DNA from: an uncultured Methylomirabilota bacterium
GTDB taxonomy: Bacteria; Methylomirabilota; Methylomirabilia; Methylomirabilales; 2-02-FULL-66-22
Assembly: GCA_963845565.1 (NCBI GenBank)
Contig: CAWJSJ010000002.1
Coordinates: forward strand, 2,496,001-2,560,000
Direction of reading: 5' to 3'
Length of the DNA: 64,000 nt
Shown here: positions 22,710 to 38,199 of the stretch, piece after piece
How the letters are laid out: each line of letters starts with the position of its first letter
Position numbering within the stretch: position 1 is the stretch's first letter
The notes under the pieces: generated by a model
The model's input: the letters and a program-made list of their open reading frames with translations, nothing else
What the model was told of the DNA's origin: nothing
Database searches by the model: none
Program-made: the position numbers and the translations under genes

Positions 22710-23993
22710 TCACTCCATGAGGAGCGCGGGGAGCCAGAGGCTGACGGCCGGCACGAAGGTGACCAGGAGTAGGACGATGACGTCGGCGATCAGGAACGGG
22801 ATGGACGCCCGGAAGATCGTGACGATGTCGAGCTTCGTGATCGTCGAAGCGACGTTCAGGCACATCCCCACGGGCGGCGTGACCAGGCCGATGGCCATGC
22901 CGACGATCAGGATGGCGCCGAACTGTATCGGGGAGACGCCGAGCGCCTTCATGGCCGGCATGAAGACCGGCGTGAGGAGGATGATCGCCGGGGCCACATC
23001 CACAAAGAACCCGACGAGCAGGATGATGACATCCAGGACGAGCAGGATGACCCAGAGCGGGAAGATCGAGGCCGATGAGCAAGTGCCGCCACCTGGTCCG
23101 GCACGCGCTCCAGCGCCAGGATCCAGGTGTACAGGGCCGGAGAACGCGGTGATGACCATCACATTGGCGCTGATCAGGATGATGCCGCGGAGCATCGGTG
23201 GGACGTGTCCGACTTCAAGCCGCGGAAGACAAGGTGCCCACGGCGAATGCGTAGAGGACACCCACGCCGGCGGCTTCGGTGGCGGTGGTCAGGCCGATGA
23301 CCACTGACCCGATCACGAAGACGGGCATCAGCAGCGGGAGGATACCGTTGTGCAGTCGGCTCAGGATCGCGGGACGGTGAATTGAATATCGCTTCGACGG
23401 GTAGCGCGCTTCGTCGAGATGATGCCGTTGATCGACATCTGTACCAGGCCGATGAGGATCAGACCGGGGATGGCGCCGGACAGGAAAAGCCGGCCGACCG
23501 ACTCCGAGGCGATGAAGGCGATAGATGACCATCGGGATGCTCGGGCGGGATGATCATTCCCGTTGGTGGACGCGGCCACGGTGATTCCGCCGGCGAATTC
23601 GCGCGAGTAGCCACGCCGCTCCATTTCGGGAATCAGGACGGAGCCGATCGAGGCCGCATCGGCCACGGACGACCCGGAGATGCCGCCAGATGATCATGCT
23701 GGACATGACGCAGACCATGCCCAGCCCACCCCGCAAGCCGCCCGACGAGGAGCATGCTGAAATCGATCAGCCGTGCGGTCAGCCCACCCTGGTTCATCAT
23801 CGCGCCCATGAGCATGAACAGGGGGAGGGCCAGCATGAGTTCCGTGTCCATTCCCGGAGAAGACGCGCTGTGGGAATCACCAGCAGGAGCCCCGGCTGGT
23901 ACGGACGAAGTAGAGCAGGCGGACAGGCCCAGCGCGTACGCGATGGGAGCCCCGCACCACGAGGACGGCCAGACCACCGAGCAGGATGAGCAT
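22710..23993 (-). CDS. dctM: TRAP transporter large permease, multiple frameshifts
   Basis: LLALPLFMLMGAMMNQGG, ADAASIGSVLIPEM, TATEAAGV, IGLVTPPVG spread over several frames. Confidence 0.8.
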
Positions 23994-24005
23994 GGGCGCC
24001 TCTTC

Positions 24006-24485
24006 TCACCGGCCGCGACACTCCTGCCGGGTATCGGCGAATCGCCAGCCAGAGGGCGTACAGGGCGACCAGCCCGCAACCGACGGGTACGCTCAAGAGC
24101 ACAACGCCTTGCGGGATTCGGAGGACGGGCGAGGGAAACTGACCGACCGAACGAATCCAGGGGATGCTCAGGATGACGACCAACCCGTGTCAGGCGCGAC
24201 CACGAGATAGATTGATCCGTCGCATCCAGCGCCGGGCCCGTGGCGGAAAGCGGTCCACGAACAGCGGGATGGCAATGTGCTCCCCCTTGGCAGAGCAACA
24301 CGGCGGCGCCGATGGCGAGGTGTAGATGAAGCAGAGACAGGGCGAATTCCTGTCCGCCGACGATGGTGGTGATGAAGAAAGTACCGCAGGATGACAAGGA
24401 CGATAATCGGCCACCGTGATGACGAGGAACAGATAACCGAGCAGGACCTCCAGAAAACGGGCCAGCTCGCGGCGAGACGACTCAT
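24006..24485 (-). CDS. dctQ: TRAP transporter small permease, frameshifted
   Basis: Between dctP and dctM; VILRYF, GEHIAI, SPVLRIP segments across frames. Confidence 0.7.
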
Positions 24486-25690: not shown

Positions 25691-26407
25691 CTATTTCTCC
25701 ATGGCCGGCTTCCACACCTTCCAGACGTTGCCAACGAGGTTCGGCCCAGGGGTGAGCGTCAGTTCCCCCGGCATCCAGCCTGCCGGCGTGGCCTCTTTGC
25801 CGCCCGAGGCCCGCACGTGTTGGTACGCTTGGATCTGGCGGACCGACTCGGCGAACTTGCGGCCCACCGGCGGGGTGAGTACTTCCATGGCCTGGATGAC
25901 TCCGTCCGGGTCGATGATGAAGCGACCCCGCAGTTCGATCCCTTGGCCTTCGTCATAGACCCCGAACGCCCGGCCGACATTGCCGGCCTGATCCGATGCC
26001 ATGTGGAAGGGGACGCCGCCGTCCACCATCTTCACCAGTTCGTGGTCGTTCCACATCTTGTGGACGAAATGGCTGTCCACACTGACGGAGATGACCTCCG
26101 CGCCCAGCTTCTGCAGGACAGGATACTTGTCGGCGACCGCCGACACTTCCGTCGCTCAGACAAAGGTGAAATCACCGGGGTAGAAGCACAGCAACACCCA
26201 TTTCCCCAGGTAGTCCGACAGCTTGACCGAGGTGAACCCGCCGCGGTAGTACGCCGGGGCGGAGAAGTCGGGAGCCTTCTGTCCTACGCGCGCAGTCACG
26301 ATTTTCTCCTCCTTCTTCGTCGGGGTCTCGGCGGATTGTGGCCCGCCAGTCTCCTGCCCCGCGACCGTCCCGGTCACGCGAGCGCAGCCTTGCGGTTGCT
26401 CTGCCAT
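25691..26407 (-). CDS. prxU: Selenocysteine-containing peroxiredoxin (AhpC-like PrxU); UGA at 26156-26158
   Basis: [15 protein letters not shown] in frame, at the peroxidatic Cys position of FYPxDFTFVCPTE; hairpin follows. Confidence 0.92.
26128..26145 (-). other. Candidate bacterial SECIS element of prxU
   Basis: TGTCGGC-GGTC-GCCGACA stem-loop starting 11 nt after UGA, G-containing loop. Confidence 0.7.
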
Positions 26408-26629: not shown

Positions 26630-26676
26630 TTGCGCATTTGCACCTTTGACAGTGGATCATGGTTGCGAGTCTGCAA
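26630..26676. promoter_or_regulatory. Tandem upstream activator sites
   Basis: TTGC-GCATTT-GCAC (26630) and perfect GGTTGC-GAGTCT-GCAACC (26661-26678); cores 33 bp apart. Confidence 0.6.
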
Positions 26677-28033
26677 CCGCGGGGGTACGGGGAATCTGCA
26701 AACGATGCTGCTTCATCTTCCGCCAAAGGGTGGTCTTGTGAATCCCCAGGGCCTTGGCGGCAGCCAGACGGTTCCAACCGTGGTGCCGCAGCGTCTCGAG
26801 GATGACGTGGGCCTCGAGGTCGTGCAGAGTGCTCGGGCCGGCCACCGGTGCGGATTGATCGGCGGGGCGGAGAGATTCCGGAAGGTGCTGCGGATGAATC
26901 ACGCCGCCGGGGCAGAGAATGAACGCGTGCTCGATGATGTTCTCGAGTTCGCGCACGTTTCCCGGATAGTCATGGGTCATCAGAATCCGCATGGTCTCCG
27001 GGGTCAGCCCCTCGATGTCTCTTCCGCGAAGCCGGCCGAACCGGGCGACGAAATGCTCGGCGAGGAGGGGGATATCCTCCCGCCGGTCGCGGAGCGGGGG
27101 AAGGGTGATGCGGACGATATTGATGCGGTAATACAGGTCTTGCCGGAACGTCCCCGCCTTCACGAGATCGGCAAGGCGCTTGTTGGAGGCTGTCACGATC
27201 CGGACGTCCGCTTTCACGGACTCGGTGCCGCCGAGCGGCTCGTAGGTCTTCTGCTCGAGCACGCGGAGGAGCCGCACCTGGAGGGCAGGGGATATGTCGC
27301 CGATCTCGTCGAGGAAAATGGTCCCGCCATCGGCCAGGGCGAAGCGTCCCGGCTTGTCCTTCCGCGCATCCGTGAAGGCGCCGGCCTTGTACCCGAAGAG
27401 CTCCGACTCCAGCAGGGTGTCGGGAAGCGCGCCACAGTTGACCGTCACCAGCGGCCCGGCCCGGCGAGGGCTCAACGCGTGGAGTGCTCGCGCCACCAGT
27501 TCCTTTCCGGTACCGCTTTCGCCCTCGATCAGCACCGTGCTGCTGCTCTCTGCAACGGCCGGCAGCATGGCGAAGATCCGCTGCATCGCCGGGCTCTTGC
27601 TGATGATGTCGGCAAACGTGTACTGGTGGGCGATCTCGGCACGCAGTTGCTCGACCAGCCGCAGGTCGCGAAACGTCTCGACCCCGCCCAGGATTTGGCC
27701 CCCGCGATCCTTGAGTACTGCGGTGCTCACGCTGATGGGCGCCCGATCGCCGTCCGATCGAAGAATATACACCTGGCGGTTCACCACCGGCCGCCCCGTG
27801 TGCATGGTTTCCTTCATGGCGCACTGGGCTTCACAAATGGATGCCCGGAAGACCTCGCAGCACGGCTGGCCTATGGCCTCGTGGCGGGGAACGCCCGTGA
27901 TCTGTTCGGCCGCACGATTGAAGGAGGTAATCCGGAATCCGTCGTCCACGGTGAACACCCCGTCGGCAACCGAATCCAGAATCACGGCCACCTCGTTGGA
28001 TGACAAGGCGGGATCTTTCTTGGTTATTCCCAT
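26657..28033 (-). CDS. Sigma54-dependent enhancer-binding protein (PAS-AAA+-Fis HTH)
   Basis: PAS with PCCEVF...IC...C; GESGTGKE, ESELFG, GAFTDA, FLDEIG, PGNVREL, HTH. Confidence 0.95.
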   Translation of the reverse strand: MGITKKDPALSSNEVAVILDSVADGVFTVDDGFRITSFNRAAEQITGVPRHEAIGQPCCEVFRASICEAQCAMKETMHTGRPVVNRQVYILRSDGDRAPISVSTAVLKDRGGQILGGVETFRDLRLVEQLRAEIAHQYTFADIISKSPAMQRIFAMLPAVAESSSTVLIEGESGTGKELVARALHALSPRRAGPLVTVNCGALPDTLLESELFGYKAGAFTDARKDKPGRFALADGGTIFLDEIGDISPALQVRLLRVLEQKTYEPLGGTESVKADVRIVTASNKRLADLVKAGTFRQDLYYRINIVRITLPPLRDRREDIPLLAEHFVARFGRLRGRDIEGLTPETMRILMTHDYPGNVRELENIIEHAFILCPGGVIHPQHLPESLRPADQSAPVAGPSTLHDLEAHVILETLRHHGWNRLAAAKALGIHKTTLWRKMKQHRLQIPRTPAVADSQP

Positions 28034-28243: not shown

Positions 28244-28259
28244 TGGCACCGCCTGTGCA
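28244..28259 (+). promoter_or_regulatory. Sigma54 -24/-12 promoter candidate for the respiratory operon
   Basis: TGGCACCGCCTGTGCA (GG-N10-GC), about 340 nt before ATG 28600. Confidence 0.55.
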
Positions 28260-28599: not shown

Positions 28600-29574
28600 A
28601 TGCATTTGAATCGACGAACGCTGCTGAAACTGGGGATTGCGGCGACGTCGGGGGTTGGCGCTCCCGCCCTGGCGGCCCAAGAAGCCCAGACGGCAAAGGA
28701 GAGACCGGCGTCCTCCCCGGACTATGTGGGCGTCCTGGTGGATACCACGCTCTGCATCGGGTGCCGAAAGTGCGAGGAGGCCTGCAACCGCCGGAACCAT
28801 CTTCCCCGCACGGCCGAATCCTTCTCCGACAGGGATGTCCTCCGCTCCTTCCGTCGGCCTTCCGAAACCGCCTTTACGGTCGTGAACCAGTTCCCGGGGC
28901 GTCCATCCCCGGATCAGGCCGGTTTGCCCCAGACCTACTGCAAGGTCCAGTGCATGCACTGCCTCTACCCGTCCTGCGTTTCGGCGTGCATCGTGGGCGC
29001 GCTGACCAAGTCCGCCGACGGCGCCGTGGTCTACAACCCCACCATCTGCATCGGGTGCCGATACTGCCAGGTTGCCTGTCCCTTCGAGATCCCGGCTTAC
29101 GAATTCCACGTTGCGCTCACCCCTCGAGTGCGCAAGTGCGAATTCTGCGCCGACCAGGCCAAAGGGACCGGCGCCGATCCTGCGTGCGCCGCCTCCTGTC
29201 CCACCGAGGCGCTGGTCTTCGGCCGCCGGGCGGACCTGGTCGCTATGGCGAAGGACCGTCTGAAGCGACGCCCGGACCGTTACGTCAATCACCTCTACGG
29301 CGAAACCGAAGTGGGCGGGACCTCCTGGCTGTACCTGACCGGGAGGCCGGTCCGGGAGGTCGGCCTGCTGGACCTCCCCGACACCCCTCCTCCAAAGTTG
29401 ACCGAAGCCATCCAGCACGGGATTTTCGAGTACGGCATCATCCCCGTGGCATTTTTCGGTCTGCTGGCCGGGATCATGTGGCGCAACCACCGGAAGCATC
29501 CGGACGACACCCCGCACGCGGGGGAAGAGCACGACACCCCTTCCGCGCACACGCCCGAGGGAGGTGGGAAATGA
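28600..29574 (+). CDS. Tat-exported 4x[4Fe-4S] protein (HybA/HmcB/NrfC family) with C-terminal TM anchor
   Basis: NRRTLLK Tat motif; CIGCRKCEEAC, CMHCLYPSCVSAC, CIGCRYCQVACP, KCEFC...CAASCP. Confidence 0.9.
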   Translation: MHLNRRTLLKLGIAATSGVGAPALAAQEAQTAKERPASSPDYVGVLVDTTLCIGCRKCEEACNRRNHLPRTAESFSDRDVLRSFRRPSETAFTVVNQFPGRPSPDQAGLPQTYCKVQCMHCLYPSCVSACIVGALTKSADGAVVYNPTICIGCRYCQVACPFEIPAYEFHVALTPRVRKCEFCADQAKGTGADPACAASCPTEALVFGRRADLVAMAKDRLKRRPDRYVNHLYGETEVGGTSWLYLTGRPVREVGLLDLPDTPPPKLTEAIQHGIFEYGIIPVAFFGLLAGIMWRNHRKHPDDTPHAGEEHDTPSAHTPEGGGK

Positions 29575-32500
29575 CCCCCGCAATCCACAACGACCAGCCG
29601 CATCGGATCGAAAAGCCCTTCTTCACCTTCGGCACCTTGACCCTCTTGATCTTCATGGGCGTTGGCTTCTCTTTCGGCGTCACGCGCGTGCTCCTCGGGC
29701 TGGGCTCGGTGACAAATCTGGACAACCACAATCCCTGGGGTATCTGGATCTCCTTCGACGTGGCGTGCGGCGTCGCCCTGGCGGCCGGCGGGTTCACGAC
29801 CGGCGCCCTGGTCGACATCTTCGGCCGGAAGAAATACCTGCCCCTGCTCCGTCCCGCCCTCCTCACGGCGTTTCTGGGTTATCTCTGGGTCGTCATCGCG
29901 CTGAGCTTCGACCTGGGCCGGTACTGGAATCTCTGGCGTCCGATCTTCAACTGGCAGGGCAACTCCGTACTCTTCGAGGTAGGCATGTGCGTTACGGTCT
30001 ACCTCATCGTCCTGAGCGTGGAAATGAGCCCGTACGTGCTGGAAGGGCTGAAGGCGCGGATCGACGAGGGGGCCTGGGGAGCCATTCTGCTGCGGCGTTT
30101 CGAGAAGCCCCTTCTGGCGTTGGCTGCCGGGGTCCGGATCGTCCTCCCGCTGTTCATCGTCGCCGGCGTGGTGCTCTCTTTCATGCATCAGTCCTCCCTG
30201 GGATCGCTGATGCTCATCGCCCCCACCAAGCTGAGCCCCCTGTGGAACACCCCGATCCTCCCCCTCCTCTTCCTCCTGTCGGCGATCATGGTGGGTTTCC
30301 CGATGGTGATCTTGGAATCCATCTACGCCAACATCAGCTTTGGCCGTAGCCCGGAGATGGAACTCCTCACGCCGTTGGCCCGCATCGTTCCGTGGTTCGT
30401 CGGCACCTACGGCGTGGTGAAGATCGGCGACCTTGTCGTCCGCTACGGTCAGTTGAATTTTCTCGATCACCCCGCGGCCACGACGTCCCTGGTCGTCGAG
30501 ATCCTCTTGGGTATAGTCGCCCCGTTCCTGCTCTTCCTCAACAAGGCGGTTCGCCGGTCCGAGGGATGGCTCTTCTTCACCGTATCCTTGATCATCTTCG
30601 GCGTGGTGCTCAACCGCATCAACGTCTTCCTGGTCGGCTACAACCCGCCGTACTCAGCCAAGGCGTACTTCCCGTCGATCGGCGAGATCGCGATGACGGT
30701 GGCCATCGTCTCCAGCATTCTGTTCTGCTACCGGTTCTTTGTGACGTTCTTCCCCATCCTGCCGGGTTACGTGCCTGCGACGGAAACCCAGCTCGCCCGG
30801 ATGCGCGTGGAGCGGGAGCGGACCGTCAATCCCTTCTGGACCTGGGTGATACGCGGGAACCGCCATCGCCTTCCTCCTGGGTTTCATCGCGTTGTACAAC
30901 CTCGTGCATATCCGAGGCGCACCAAGCGACCGAGAAAACGGTCGAGGAGATCCAGCGCGTCAAGGCGGAGCTGCCGGCTCGTGCCGGACGTCCGTGGCGG
31001 GTACGGCCTACCCTCAGCGGCCCGAAGGCGTACAGGAATTATTACCTGCTGAACAGCACGGTGCTCGGCGCCAAGTCGGACGACTACGAGCCGGTGCGGT
31101 TCTCCCATCGCATCCACGACGAGCTGACCGGGGGGGATTGCGGGGTCTGCCACCATCGCTACGCGATCGGCCGAGGAAGACCGCGTGGGGCTGGATATCA
31201 AGGACCTGCACACGGCGATGGACATCAAGCTGGGCGGCGCCCTGTTCGGCTTGCCATGACGACATGGCGAAGAACCCGCCGCAGAGCTGCGCCCGCTGCC
31301 ATGGGCTGCCCAACGAAGCGGATGCCCCCTCGCGCATCGGCCTCAAAGGGGCCTATCACCGCCAGTGCATCGGGTGCCACGAGCGCCAGCTCAAGCCGGC
31401 GTTCGCGCCCACCGCATGCGCCTCCTGCCACCATCCCTGGACGCCGGACCACTCCACGCTGGTGGACTTCACCGGCAAGCCCAGTCCGCAGGACGTGACC
31501 CGGAACTGCTTGAGCTGCCACCCGAAGGTGGGACAGGACGTGTTGAAGACGGCCCACTGGAACTGGAAGGGATACTCGCCTACGCTGAAGGGATACGAGC
31601 ACCGGATCGACATCAGCCTGACGCATGATGGTCAACAACTCCTGCATCGCCATCGGCCCCAACCTCCAGGAGTGCGCCTCCTGCCACATCGGCTATGGCT
31701 GGGTGGACGCGAAATTCGACTTCACCGACCCGACCAACATCGATTGCCTTGTCTGCCATGACACGACCGGAACGTACCGGAAGGACCCCGGCAAGGGCGG
31801 GCTCCCCGACCCGTCGCTGGATCTGGCCGCGATCGCGAAAAAGGTGGGACGGCCCTCCCGGCAGGCCTGCGGTTCCTGCCACTTTCGCAAGCGGCGGAGC
31901 CCCGTACGCCAAGCATGGGGATCTGGAACCCGCGCTGGCCGACCCGCCGGCGGACTTCGACATGCACATGGGCACGCTCAAGATGCGCTGCCAGGATTGC
32001 CATGCGACCACCGAGCACCGGATTGCGGGGATGTCGATGAGCGCCCCCGCCGTCGAGGGCCGCGTCCGCTGCGAAAAGTGCCACGGGCAAACGCCTCACG
32101 GGGTGGCGGGCATGCTGAGCCGCCATCTGGACGACCACGTCAGGGCCGTGGCGTGCGAGACCTGTCACATTCCCTTCATTGCGAAGGCGGCGCCGACCCT
32201 CTTGCGTCGGGATTATTCGCAAGGCGGGCCAGGACCGTCCGCCAGCGGCTGGACCAGCACGGGATGCCGCAGTACGACAAGAAATTCGGGACCTTGACCT
32301 GGGGCAAGCACCTCGTGCCCACGTACCTCTGGTACGACGGAACCCGCAGCGCCTCGCTGGTGGGCGACACGATCGACCCATCCTCTGCCGTGGTTCTCAA
32401 CGCCCCCGTCGGGGAGAAGCGGAACCCGGCGGCGCGCATCTTTCCGTTCCAGGTCCACGCGGCGGTTCAGCCCTACGACACCGAGAACAAGATCCTCGCC

Positions 32501-32875
32501 CTGCCCAAGCTCTTGGACGGCTATTGGGCCGACTTCGACTGGTCGAAGGCCATTACCAGCGGGATGAAGCAGGTGGGACTCCCCTACTCAGGGAAGTACG
32601 GTTTCGTGGAGACCAAGATGTATTCTTCCATCCACCACGAGGTGGTCCCCGCCACGAAAGCTCTCGGCTGTTCCGATTGCCACAGCCTGGAGGCTATCAC
32701 GTGCACGCGTTGCCACAAGAACGCGAAGGAGATGGACCTTCCCGCGCACCGGCGTGCGGTCTATCCGGAGGCGACAAATCGGATCGATTTCAAAGGCTTG
32801 GGCTACCCCGACGATCCGGCCCACGTAGGCGGCCGGTTCTACATCGGCATCGGTCGAGGCGCGCCGCCGAAATAG
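29571..32875 (+). CDS. Apparent fusion of NrfD/HybB quinol-interacting membrane domain + TM + class III cytochrome c domain + octaheme tetrathionate-reductase-like domain; about 8 indels in this assembly
   Basis: PWGIWISFDVACGVALAAGGF, DLGRYWN, SVLFEV, MHQSSLGS; then PVRFSHRIH, GLKGAYHRQCIGCH; then HWNW, NNSC, KHGDL, PTYLWYDG, IHHEV; 14 CxxCH after frame repair. Confidence 0.7.
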
Positions 32876-33259: not shown

Positions 33260-34768
33260 ATGCGAGCCAAGATAAGCTACAAACTCATTGTCGCGGTGGG
33301 CAGCGTGGCGCTGATCATCATCGGGTTTTTCTCCTATGGGATTCTGAGCGCCCATCGACGGCAACTCATCGGCGAGGTCCGACGCAGCGCGCACCAACTG
33401 AGCGAGACGGTGAAAAGCAGCACGCATTACGACATGCTGTTGAATCAGCGGGAGGCGGTTTATCGCATCATCACCACCATCGGCAAGCAGGACGGCATCA
33501 AGAAAGTCCGGATCTTCAACAAGGACGGCGCGATCAGTTTTTCCACGGATCATCTTGATGTCGGCCAGATGGTCGACAAGCGAGCGGAAGCGTGCTATGC
33601 CTGCCATGCGGTGGATCAACCCCTGGAGCGATTGCCCATTCCCGACCGTACGCGCATATTCCAACTCCCCGGTTCCGGGCGCGTTCTCGGCATTATCAGT
33701 CCGATATATAACGAACCGAGCTGCTGGCAAAGCAGCTGTCATGCGCACGAGCCGTCAAAAAAAGTCTTGGGCGTGCTGGATATCTCGATGTCGTTGGATG
33801 ACGTCGATCGCGACATGGAATCCAGCCAAAAGCGCCTACTGCTGTTCGGCATCGTCGCCATTGGCGCCGTGAGTGGCATGATTTTTCTCCTGGTCGATCG
33901 GATCGTGCTCAAGCCGGTGAATGAAATTGCGGCGGCGACGCGCAAGGTAGCTGCCGGCGATCTGCATTACAAGATTGCGTTGACCAAACGGGATGAAATC
34001 GGGATCTTGGCCGACTCCTTCAATCAGATGACGCAAAAACTCTCCGAGGCGCAGCGGCAGATTTATCAATCAGAGAAACTGGCGGCGGTTGGGCAATTGG
34101 CGGCGGGGGTGGCACATGAAATCAATAACCCACTCACCGGAGTGTTGAGCTACGCCAGCTTCCTCCTTAAACGCGCTGAAGACCGGCCCGAGTTCAAGGA
34201 AGACTTGGAAGTGATCGTGCGGGAAACCAAGCGGTGCCGGGAGATCGTGAAAGGCCTGTTGGATTTCGCCCGACAGTTGCCGCCGGAAAAGCAGGCCTGT
34301 GACATCACGGAAATCGTGGAACGCGCGGTTCGTATCGTGCAAATCCAGCTTGCCGCGCATCGCGTGGAGCTGCGGAGGAATCTGCGCACCGACCTACCGA
34401 AGATCCACGTCGACGCGAATCAGCTCCAGCAGGTTCTCGTCAATCTCCTGCTCAACGCCAATGCCGCTATCGGCGACGGTGGGGGCACGATTACCTTAGT
34501 GACCGATTTGGCGGTAGAAGAGGGCGGGGCGCGGAACCAGACCCAAGGCATCGAAGTCAGGGTGAGCGACACCGGCTGCGGCATTCCGCCGGCGAATCTC
34601 CAAAGAATCTTCGATCCGTTCTTCTCCACTAAGGGGGCAAAGGGTACCGGCCTTGGACTGGCGGTCGCGTGGGGCATCGTCGAGAAACACAACGGACGCA
34701 TTGAGGTCGAGAGCGACGTCGGCAAAGGTACAACGTTTCGCGTGCTCTTGCCGATCGGCGAGCAGTAG
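33260..34768 (+). CDS. Sensor histidine kinase with heme c-type periplasmic domain, HAMP, HisKA, HATPase
   Basis: Two TMs; CYACH and CWQSSCH; AHEINNPL; GTGLGL. Confidence 0.92.
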   Translation: MRAKISYKLIVAVGSVALIIIGFFSYGILSAHRRQLIGEVRRSAHQLSETVKSSTHYDMLLNQREAVYRIITTIGKQDGIKKVRIFNKDGAISFSTDHLDVGQMVDKRAEACYACHAVDQPLERLPIPDRTRIFQLPGSGRVLGIISPIYNEPSCWQSSCHAHEPSKKVLGVLDISMSLDDVDRDMESSQKRLLLFGIVAIGAVSGMIFLLVDRIVLKPVNEIAAATRKVAAGDLHYKIALTKRDEIGILADSFNQMTQKLSEAQRQIYQSEKLAAVGQLAAGVAHEINNPLTGVLSYASFLLKRAEDRPEFKEDLEVIVRETKRCREIVKGLLDFARQLPPEKQACDITEIVERAVRIVQIQLAAHRVELRRNLRTDLPKIHVDANQLQQVLVNLLLNANAAIGDGGGTITLVTDLAVEEGGARNQTQGIEVRVSDTGCGIPPANLQRIFDPFFSTKGAKGTGLGLAVAWGIVEKHNGRIEVESDVGKGTTFRVLLPIGEQ

Positions 34769-34926
34769 ACTGCAGTTCAGTGAGACAACGGATGCACGGA
34801 GTATGTCCGTCCTTCGTTGATCGTCGCGCGCCAGGCAGCGTGTTCCGTGTACGCCACGTGTCAGCATCGGAACAGGGGCAACGACGACTGAGTCTCCGGC
34901 GTCGCGCGTGTTGAGGGGAGGCAATT

Positions 34927-36081
34927 ATGGTTCCGATCCTCGTGGTCGTGATGATCGTGGTGTTCGTCGTCATCAACGTGGTGGTTCGGTTGGTGATGGA
35001 TCGGATGCGTGAAGCCAAGGCGCGCAAGGAACGGCTCGAAGCGCTGGATATCGGCCTGCGTTTAGATTTTGCGGATGAAGCGCCATCGCTCAAGCGGGTC
35101 GAGGTGGCCAAGCCGCTCGCGCGTATTCTTGCGGTGGACGACGAAACCATCGTGCTCGACAGTTTCCGGAAGATCCTCGTGGCCGCCGGCTACGCGATCG
35201 ACACGGTGGAAAGCGGGCGCGAGGCGCTGGGCCTCGTGCAGAAGCACACGTACGATTTTGTGTTCACCGACTTGAAAATGCCGGAGATGGATGGGTTGGA
35301 TGTGGTGAAGGGCGTCAAGCACTACAGCGCCGAGTCGGATGTCGTGGTCATCACCGGCTACGCCACCATTGAATCCGCGGTGAATGCGATGAAGTGGGGT
35401 GCCATGGATTATGTGCAAAAACCCTTCACCGAAGACGAACTGGTGGAATTCACCAAGAAGTGCCTGTTTCGCCGGCAAGATCGCGAACACAAACGGCTCT
35501 CCTCCACGGTGCACGTAGCCACGACGGACCGCCCGCCGGCTCACGAATTCGGTCTGCCGGGCGGGGTGTTCTTTTCCCCCGGCCATGTGTGGGCGAATGT
35601 CACCATCCCGGGCATGGTGCGTGTAGGTTTGGACGATTTTGCGCGCAAGATGATCGGGCGCATCGATGCGCTCGAATTGCCCGCCAAGGGCGCGACGATC
35701 AAGAAGGGGGAGTGTCTCTTCAGTATTCGGCAAGGCGGGCGTGCCGCCGTTTTCCATGCGCCGATCTCCGGGACCGTGCATGAGGTGAACGCCGACCTGC
35801 CCAAGCACCTGGAATGGCTGGAAAGCCGTCCCTACGAGCAGGGGTGGGTGTGCTCGATGAAACCCGAGCATCTGGAGGACGAGCTGAGGCAGTTGCATAT
35901 CGGCGAGAAAGCGGCGGAATGGTATCGGGCGGAGATCGCACGCCTCCAGGCGATGCTGGGAGCGGCACATGGCGAAACCGCCGCCCCGCCGGCTCCAACC
36001 GGACGGCTGGTCGAAGGCCAGTTGGAGGCGACCGACGACGCCACGTGGAGCAAGTTCACGCAGGCCTTCTTAGGGGCGTAG
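34927..36081 (+). CDS. Membrane-anchored response-regulator receiver fused to GcvH-like domain
   Basis: N-terminal TM; VDDE, TDLKMPEMDG, KPF; then GHVWA, RVGLDDFA, APISGTVHEVN, PYEQGW. Confidence 0.88.
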   Translation: MVPILVVVMIVVFVVINVVVRLVMDRMREAKARKERLEALDIGLRLDFADEAPSLKRVEVAKPLARILAVDDETIVLDSFRKILVAAGYAIDTVESGREALGLVQKHTYDFVFTDLKMPEMDGLDVVKGVKHYSAESDVVVITGYATIESAVNAMKWGAMDYVQKPFTEDELVEFTKKCLFRRQDREHKRLSSTVHVATTDRPPAHEFGLPGGVFFSPGHVWANVTIPGMVRVGLDDFARKMIGRIDALELPAKGATIKKGECLFSIRQGGRAAVFHAPISGTVHEVNADLPKHLEWLESRPYEQGWVCSMKPEHLEDELRQLHIGEKAAEWYRAEIARLQAMLGAAHGETAAPPAPTGRLVEGQLEATDDATWSKFTQAFLGA

Positions 36082-36831: not shown

Positions 36832-38199
36832 ATGCTGCGACGGCTCTCGCCGGTGGTGTTGCTGCTGTGTGGTCTGCTCGTCCCGACGCCATCCTGGACC
36901 GGTACCGATCACAAGGACCTCGTGTCCGGGCCGTTCAGGACGGGGCCGGAGGTGACCGAGACGTGTCTCGGCTGCCACGAGCAGCAGGCCAAGGACTTCA
37001 TGAAGACGGTCCACTGGACCTGGCAGGAGAAGCAACAGGTGCCCGGCAGAGGGCAGATGAGCATCGGAAAGCTCAACCTGATCAACAATTTCTGCATTGC
37101 GCTGCCCGCCAACTGGCCGCGCTGTACCAGTTGTCACGCCGGCTACGGCTGGAAGGACGCGTCGTTCAAGTTCGATGACCCGAAGAACGTGGATTGCCTG
37201 GTGTGCCACGACACCACCGGGACCTACGCGAAGTCCCCGGCCGGTGCGGGGAATCCGGATCCCAAGGTGGATCTCGTCAAGGTGGCGCAGAGTGTCGGAA
37301 AGCCCACCCGACAGAATTGCGGCACATGCCACTTCTTCGGCGGGGGCGGCGATCACGTCAAGCACGGGGACCTGGACAGCTCGCTCCTGAAGCCGAGCCG
37401 CGCGGTGGACGTGCACATGGCGGACCCGGCCCCGGGCATGACCTGCCAGGACTGCCACAAGACGAAAGAGCACCAGATTCCCGGGGAGTCGATGGCGGTG
37501 TCCCTCGGGAAGGGGGCGCGGGTCTCCTGTCTCGACTGCCACGGCGAGACCCCGCACAAGATCCCGACCTACAACCGGCACACCAAGCGGGTGGCCTGTG
37601 AGACCTGCCACGTCCCCGTGTTCGCCAAGGGGCTGCCGACCAAGGTCTGGTGGGACTGGTCGAAGGCGGGGCAGGACCGGCCGCCGGCCAAGGACAAGCA
37701 CGGCCTCGAGACCTACGTCAAGATCAAGGGGGAGTTCAAGTGGGAGAAGGACGTCCCGCCGACCTATCTCTGGTACAACGGCGAGACGGCGCGTTACCTG
37801 CTGGGGGATACGATCGATCCGTCGAAGGTGGTTGCGCTGAATCGGCCGCTGGGCGACCGGAAGGATGTCAAGGCCCGGATCATGCCGTTCAAGGTCATGC
37901 GCGGGAAGCAGCCGTATGACAAGCAGTTGAAGACGATCGCGGTCCCACACCTGTTCGGCGGCTACTGGAATCACTTCGACTGGAACCGGGCCATCGCCGA
38001 CGGCAACAAGGCGGCAGGCATCCCCTACAGCGGCCAGTTCGACTGGGCCGAGACGGTGATGTACTGGAAGGTGAACCACATGGTGGCGCCGAAGCAGGCG
38101 GCTTTTCGGTGCACTGCATGCCATCGCGACAAAGGGGGCATCTTGAACTGGAAGGCGCTGGGATATGCCGGCGACCCGGCGCAGGAGCCAGGCAAGTAA
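36832..38199 (+). CDS. otr: Octaheme c-type cytochrome, tetrathionate reductase (OTR) family
   Basis: Signal peptide; 8 CxxCH; HWTW, GK...INNFC, GGGGDHVKHGD, PTYLWYNG, NHMVAP. Confidence 0.92.
   Translation: MLRRLSPVVLLLCGLLVPTPSWTGTDHKDLVSGPFRTGPEVTETCLGCHEQQAKDFMKTVHWTWQEKQQVPGRGQMSIGKLNLINNFCIALPANWPRCTSCHAGYGWKDASFKFDDPKNVDCLVCHDTTGTYAKSPAGAGNPDPKVDLVKVAQSVGKPTRQNCGTCHFFGGGGDHVKHGDLDSSLLKPSRAVDVHMADPAPGMTCQDCHKTKEHQIPGESMAVSLGKGARVSCLDCHGETPHKIPTYNRHTKRVACETCHVPVFAKGLPTKVWWDWSKAGQDRPPAKDKHGLETYVKIKGEFKWEKDVPPTYLWYNGETARYLLGDTIDPSKVVALNRPLGDRKDVKARIMPFKVMRGKQPYDKQLKTIAVPHLFGGYWNHFDWNRAIADGNKAAGIPYSGQFDWAETVMYWKVNHMVAPKQAAFRCTACHRDKGGILNWKALGYAGDPAQEPGK

Follow-up and report, generated by a model that had tools for sequence, protein, structure and literature searches.

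Organisation of the locus and integrity of the fusion gene

In a 64,000-nucleotide stretch of DNA from an uncultured Methylomirabilota bacterium (the window: contig CAWJSJ010000002.1, positions 2,496,001 to 2,560,000), we analysed a gene that joins an NrfD-family membrane domain of the HybB/HmcC type to a class III cytochrome (c3-like) domain and to an octaheme domain related to octaheme tetrathionate reductase (OTR). The stop codon of a gene for a HybA/HmcB-like iron-sulfur (FeS) protein overlaps the start codon of this fusion (Table 1). Coordinates are positions in the window, and residue numbers are those of the intact fusion.

Table 1. Features of the fusion locus and its surroundings.
Feature	Coordinates	Strand	Basis and remarks
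HybA/HmcB-like iron-sulfur protein	28600..29574	+	Twin-arginine signal, four 4-Cys ferredoxin groups, C-terminal membrane tail; Pfam Fer4 families
Fusion gene	29571..32875	+	1097 codons where intact, as in relatives; here interrupted by 10 insertions (11 extra bases in all) from 30855 to 32242
NrfD-family membrane domain, HybB/HmcC type	29613..30770	+	10 predicted helices; PF03916 60.1 bits vs cut-off 25.8
Eleventh predicted helix, residues 427-445	30849..30906	+	Hydropathy and alternating Lys/Arg loop counts, 115 homologs
Class III (c3-like) domain, five CxxCH	31073..31443	+	PF02085 31 bits vs cut-off 22.9
OTR-like octaheme domain, eight CxxCH in register with 1SP3	31444..32692	+	1SP3 E 2e-109; TIGR04315 469 bits vs cut-off 375
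Altered catalytic site	31618..31687	+	Leu681 (codon 31618) in place of OTR Lys56; Cys64 equivalent and heme II CxxCH retained; alignment to 1SP3
C-terminal extension, 14th CxxCH	32693..32875	+	Motif in 115/115 fusions
Stand-alone OTR	36832..38199	+	Signal peptide, intact Gly-Lys ligand motif; about 4 kb away from the fusion that lacks Lys; serves as internal control and is not required as a partner

A first-pass annotation made from the sequence alone had proposed that one chain is hidden here behind single-base indels, with 14 CxxCH motifs in a given order and a HybB-like frame lacking a stop at its usual end. Six-frame translation found all 14 motifs in that order on the plus strand (31139-32716), spread over three frames, and the NrfD frame that opens at 29571 indeed passes the usual NrfD end and continues out of frame to 31052. 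In a frameshift-aware alignment, positions 29571-32875 match an intact relative of 1097 residues (P0001) over its whole length: 1040 residues are identical and 47 substituted, there is no in-frame stop, and the frame breaks ten times, always by an insertion (+1 at approximately 30855, 30916, 31030, 31166, 31242, 31624, 31883, 32223 and 32242, and +2 at approximately 30986). The identical ten breaks recur against each of the 10/10 aligned intact members of the 90% cluster of P0001. The eight indel positions put forward earlier were correct to within a few bases, and only the mutually cancelling pair at 30986 and 31030 had been overlooked.

Elsewhere in the window, CxxCH motifs form a cluster only in the second, stand-alone OTR gene, and hence the cluster of the fusion is not a product of chance. 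A search of long proteins with the NrfD part recovered intact full-length homologs, P0001 being the top match: 115 of the best 120 of 481 matches, among 8000 scored candidates, are full-length fusions of 1020-1120 residues, mostly from uncultured bacteria, of which 93 have 14 motifs and 22 have 13. Far from the homologs always being separate genes, all parts lie in one open frame at 38 of 51 related genome loci. The single-gene fusion is thus real.

Origin of the ten frame breaks

The ten insertions are likely errors of the window assembly. Short-read contigs of related strains from three studies lack the extra letters at nine of the ten break positions tabulated, and a single contig that crosses the first eight breaks shows exactly nine gap letters, the expected number. 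The contigs compared come from other strains, 93-99.5% alike; hence, they are no proof for the strain of the window. A codon-model scan of contig C2, which is noisy and in which gene junctions were filtered in part only, gave 575 apparent shifts, of which 411 are +1 and 164 are others, clustered in patches with as many as 10 per 2 kb. Four of the 51 related loci are broken similarly. The idea that each insertion holds two merged strain alleles is suggestive only: at least two plausible readings exist at 10/10 sites, and random insertions give as much in 69-71% of cases.

It is very improbable that the ten breaks lie in the chromosome and make the gene a true pseudogene of the window organism. 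Such a reading could draw on the strain difference of the contigs and on the heme half of the gene, which differs from P0001 at 44/669 residues vs 3/428 in the NrfD half, but it has to account for a gene with insertions only, no stop codons, no deletions and every heme motif intact, for the equally patchy remainder of contig C2 and for the missing letters in the related strains.

Dense apparent +1 patches also occur on the minus strand of the host contig (G000:C2, approximately 492000-504000 and 998000-1002000; 7-10 per 2 kb), where gene calls are unreliable. A TRAP transporter large permease gene in the window (22710-24397, minus strand) is seemingly split over several frames, probably by more assembly errors.

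Membrane domain and iron-sulfur partner

In an alignment to Escherichia coli HybB, Asp63, Arg94, Tyr104, Ser132, Glu151, His206 and Arg349 of the fusion correspond to D58, R89, Y99, S129, E148, H184 and R329 (7/7 identical), and each of them is conserved in 112-115 of the 115 fusions. Two published studies discuss these HybB residues in terms of the quinone site, the gate or the proton path (PMC8076601, PMC13059093). The domain does not reach the equivalog cut-offs for HybB (316.7 vs 450) and HmcC (277.7 vs 550), nor that for QrcD. A sequence search of the PDB with the NrfD part by itself gave no match, and a profile finds ActC only, weakly. Neither a catalytic hydrogenase or molybdoenzyme nor any other Hmc subunit was present among the 14 flanking and internal frames scanned.

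Averaged hydropathy indicates eleven helices, and Lys and Arg alternate between the loops in a way that fits a cytoplasmic N-terminus and a periplasmic heme region. The topology check therefore agrees with the extra transmembrane helix proposed beforehand, placing it after the ten NrfD helices; it is predicted to act as an internal anchor, by which the heme domains would reach the periplasm. The absence of a separate signal peptide before the heme part, also remarked on in the first-pass annotation, is explained by this one extra helix, which makes such a peptide unnecessary.

The upstream FeS protein scores 316 bits with HmcB and 263 bits with HybA and is 33% identical to E. coli HybA. A homolog is present at 48 of the 51 loci and lies directly upstream of the fusion at 47, while the remaining four loci start only at the fusion gene or within it. 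The fusion thus has an adjacent four-cluster FeS partner of the NrfC/HybA type.

Heme domains and the altered catalytic site

The c3-like domain has the His-x-x-His start and four-heme core of its class together with a fifth motif, and all five motifs are found in 115/115 fusions; among solved structures, it matches best the C-terminal domains of HmcA and of the nine-heme cytochrome. The OTR-like domain follows (TIGR04315 and TIGR04314 scores are those of intact P0001). The 14th motif, beyond the octaheme domain, is missing from 76/82 shorter OTR-family proteins, and a new His849, invariant in 115/115 fusions, is likely the distal ligand of the 14th heme. With the quinone-site residues and the c3-like and OTR-like parts all found, the earlier suggestion that quinol site, heme wire and OTR fold share one polypeptide holds. 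The OTR assignment itself stands as to homology (eight motifs, an OTR-like domain), whereas the replacement of the catalytic Lys had gone unremarked.

In OTR, the axial ligand of heme II is Lys56, as described in parts of two reports (PMC3769277; bioRxiv 10.1101/2023.04.20.537704). Its place is taken by Leu681 in both the window and P0001, and the codon sits upstream of the break at 31624. In the 115 fusions, this column holds Leu in 99 and Lys in 3, and the residues that replace Lys comprise Leu, Arg, Met, Phe, Val and Ala. By comparison, Lys is present in 82/82 shorter OTR-family proteins of 440-602 residues, the stand-alone OTR of the window counted within, about 7 of these controls being pieces of Lys-keeping fusions or c3-OTR proteins; in OTR-domain-only proteins it is present in 131/134. 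The equivalent of Cys64 is found in the window and in 86/115 fusions. Both cysteines of the heme II motif are lost in 21 of the 115 fusions and kept in 94, while its histidine, His703, is present in 115/115, with or without the cysteines. The other 13 motifs are kept in 114-115 of the 115 fusions; the complex is therefore retained without that heme attachment. We take Asp150, Lys153 and His154 (numbers counted on the 1SP3 chain) to be distal-pocket residues of OTR; no paper naming such residues was found in the literature searched.

Since the Lys that holds the heme is replaced, the reductase-like head is likely no longer catalytic, as judged from its sequence. Homology of this part to OTR should therefore not be read as OTR activity.

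Distribution and history of the fusion

The relatives at the 51 genome loci are mostly from Acidobacteriota, and also from Myxococcota, Binatia, Aminicenantes, Planctomycetia, Victivallales and others. Of 20 genomes from the genus of the window, two carry the fusion intact and one carries it in pieces. A named protein in the 90% cluster of the upstream FeS protein indicates that the host likely belongs to NC10 (Methylomirabilota). At one Desulfobulbia locus (L050), the membrane gene and an anchored cytochrome gene are separate, and so the fusion is not obligatory for the module. A profile search of 50% representatives returned two-part fusions of NrfD with six hemes as well as c3-plus-OTR proteins without NrfD, which implies that the parts are modular. 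NrfD-multiheme fusions of approximately 620-670 residues without the OTR part were noted in P0361, P0373, P0375, P0379, P0387 and G014:C1:2550662-2552428, the P proteins having six CxxCH motifs.

FastTree phylogenies were built from 134 de-duplicated OTR domains (of 341) and from 93 NrfD domains, and were rooted on stand-alone OTRs or distant NrfDs. The Lys-keeping fusions of Myxococcota and Planctomycetia are sister to a mostly Lys-less clade, with supports, to be read cautiously, of 98-99 in the OTR trees and 97 in the NrfD tree, and this placement persists when the columns of the site itself are removed. Three Lys-bearing rows lie inside the mostly Lys-less clade, and hence the loss of Lys was repeated or reversed (the trees imply 7 changes of this Lys for OTR and 4 for NrfD). 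The fusion itself arose once or twice. The forms without the heme II motif make up one clade and one stray on the OTR tree, whereas they are spread over the NrfD tree, with the group of the window nested among them. This conflict, and the identity of the two halves of the window gene to P0001 (99% for NrfD vs 93% for heme), suggests that halves were exchanged between lineages.

Proposed function

The reading towards which we lean is that the fusion and its upstream FeS protein form an electron conduit from quinone to the periplasm, the head of which is likely disarmed. It is based on the precedent of MmcA, which has neither the Lys nor heme II and functions as a conduit according to the part of the report that deals with it (bioRxiv 10.1101/2023.04.20.537704), and on the repeated loss of the heme II motif. 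Electrons would enter from menaquinol at the periplasm-side site in the NrfD domain and pass first to the partner protein with its four FeS clusters. They would then cross the five hemes of the c3-like domain and those of the OTR-type chain, reach the extra heme at the end and leave to a diffusible or docked periplasmic acceptor. The conserved proton path on the cytoplasmic side would link this flow to the proton motive force, as it does in QrcCD and Hyd-2. We give outward flow a slight preference because the ancestors kept the reductase site, and the module may be reversible, since the closest characterised membrane subunits (HybB, HmcC and QrcD) reduce quinone. The host genome encodes an MtrAB-like pair, a 13-heme cytochrome b fusion and an ACIII-like locus; periplasmic partners therefore exist, with none singled out. 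An obligate feeding of the neighbouring stand-alone OTR was considered and is unsupported, as is an obligate link to MtrAB, for which 21/41 match in the taxonomic order of the window, with or without the fusion.

Several observations weigh against a disarmed conduit. According to the portion of a study devoted to them, NrfA enzymes with CxxCH instead of the Lys motif remain active (PMC12285233). The Leu-type group, to which the window gene belongs and which has lost Lys and kept the heme II motif (100 non-redundant rows), retains Cys64 in 88%, Asn61 in 89%, Asn62 in 92%, Lys153 in 88% and His154 in 94%, and Cys64 is gone only where the heme II motif is gone (0/21). Residues conserved in canonical OTRs are kept at 11/15 positions near the site vs 86/96 elsewhere, a modest difference. 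As to downstream partners, a second close OTR is found in just 10 of 45 fusion genomes and a match to an MtrB-type porin in 9 of 45, 1 of them over the cut-off, these genomes being incomplete.

In a rival reading, which we regard as a tentative possibility, the head would still be a terminal reductase in which His703 of the heme II motif replaces Lys as the ligand. The two proteins would then be a full chain from quinol to substrate (nitrite, hydroxylamine or sulfite), that is, NrfABCD or MccACD compressed into two genes. The retained heme II motif and pocket residues (88-94% in the Leu group), the loss of Cys64 together with the motif, the activity of the CxxCH-type NrfAs (PMC12285233, in part) and the lack of a consistent downstream partner all agree with this, and the OTR activities in vitro covered in a section of one paper are mainly nitrite and hydroxylamine reduction (PMC12949373). 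However, position 681 accepts six different residues in place of Lys, and the heme II motif was lost at least twice. The equivalents of Lys153 and His154 are still present in 90% and 81% of the forms without the motif and are therefore no marker of catalysis; His703, kept regardless of the cysteines, may likewise be structural.

More doubtful is a reading in which the family would be a natural series from enzyme to wire within a single-chain respiratory module and the window protein a re-ligated stage with a new kind of active site. The stages would be an unfused form with Lys, a fused form with Lys, a form in which Lys is replaced and heme II re-ligated by its own His (possibly with new chemistry), and a last form in which the cysteines are lost and the invariant His would hold a non-covalent heme. 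If true, a two-gene, proton-coupled chain from quinol to substrate would be widespread in Acidobacteriota and NC10 bacteria.

A role mainly in electron uptake, like that of Nhc, Hmc or Qrc, differs from the conduit in direction only and appears unlikely. Low-potential periplasmic donors would feed the hemes and then menaquinone, with protons taken from the cytoplasm and proton motive force gained, and the OTR-like part would be an antenna or charge store. The closest families, HybB, HmcC and QrcD, all belong to quinone-reducing complexes in the relevant passages of the two studies (PMC8076601, PMC13059093), the c3-like domain best matches HmcA and the nine-heme cytochrome, and the whole proton path is conserved. 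On the other hand, a periplasmic donor enzyme is absent among the flanking genes scanned, the hydrogenase-family matches in the host are short terminal pieces, and the ancestral forms keep the reductase site. Sulfate reduction by the host was also considered and rejected, as no DsrA match was found in its genome.

Comparison with known systems

An unfused three-gene module, in print and uncharacterised, consists of a tail-anchored Tat FeS protein, a HybB-like quinol oxidase and an OTR-family octaheme cytochrome (PMC10924467, Fig. 3). As far as the parts of that paper concerned with it go, it shares with the fusion the three functions, the order of FeS protein and membrane subunit, and the lack of conserved flanking genes. 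In contrast, the fusion joins the membrane subunit and the cytochrome through the eleventh helix, adds a five-heme c3-like domain and a 14th heme, and has lost the catalytic Lys in most members. Compared with OTR of Shewanella oneidensis (1SP3, TIGR04315), it has the eight CxxCH motifs in register and Cys64, and it scores above the family cut-off, but it carries Leu for Lys56, an extra heme, an extra His and a membrane tether, whereas OTR is soluble.

MmcA of Methanosarcina acetivorans, as portrayed in the portions of the literature dealing with it, is similarly an OTR relative without the catalytic Lys and an electron conduit beside a membrane complex. Unlike the window protein, which keeps the heme II motif, MmcA lacks it, and it is archaeal and Rnf-linked. 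P0001 has no match to TIGR04314 at E 0.001 and thus falls outside the MmcA family, and the bacterial loss of Lys, by inference, looks independent of that in MmcA, which was outside the trees.

Hyd-2 HybAB, HmcABC, NhcABCD, QrcABCD and MccACD, which are redox modules of the NrfCD type, also combine FeS and NrfD-type subunits, with the same quinone-site Ser and proton-path residues, and are likewise joined to a multiheme or catalytic periplasmic part, in the comparisons that PMC8076601 and PMC13059093 offer on these points. The fusion differs in that its cytochrome is fused and the flanking genes scanned hold no hydrogenase or other Hmc subunits. In summary, the fusion is homologous to OTR but does not pass the lysine test, and it belongs to none of Hyd-2, Hmc and MmcA; it would function as an NrfCD-type module that has its cytochrome built in, and is a variant of the published unfused HybA/HybB/OTR module. 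No description of the triple fusion or of its loss of Lys was found in the literature searched, which comprised few subscription papers; fused forms might be included in Table S3 of PMC10924467.

Database entries name the fusion proteins 'tetrathionate reductase' or 'hydrogenase cytochrome b', and genome surveys will therefore assign to many uncultured Acidobacteriota and NC10 bacteria a metabolism of sulfur or hydrogen for which the sequences give no support. One paper treats the physiological role of OTR itself as unsettled (PMC12949373). The Lys, Leu and heme II-less variants, all hard-wired to a quinone module, make up a comparison set for the purpose of the Lys ligand, and the two-subunit quinone-to-multiheme complex is a small system for tests of proton coupling in the NrfD family.

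Neighbouring genes and host genome

Downstream of the fusion, on the plus strand (33260-36081), lie a sensor kinase with a periplasmic CxxCH and then a receiver domain fused to a glycine-cleavage-H-like domain. The pair adjoins the fusion, on either side and with more than 60% identity, at about 11 of the 51 loci, and is possibly a heme-based redox regulator. An activator of the sigma-54 type with a PAS domain (26657-28033, minus strand) is divergent from the operon and has an adjacent homolog in only two other loci (L012 and L051). A sigma-54-like element at 28244 was rejected, as matches in the window occur at chance level (52 vs 62.6 expected) and the element is upstream in 0/46 relatives.

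Elsewhere in the host genome, the 13-heme cytochrome-cytochrome b fusion lies near a decaheme gene and an MtrB-type porin (L063:5561-15018; G000:C2, approximately 715500-725000), which is a candidate extracellular electron transfer locus. As to expression, a single RNA run had a share of 0.09, and its pieces were short and mostly divergent, which is evidence neither for nor against it. Finally, a peroxiredoxin frame in the window (25691-26407, minus strand) has a single in-frame TGA at the catalytic cysteine and is open afterwards, and it likely encodes a selenocysteine peroxiredoxin.

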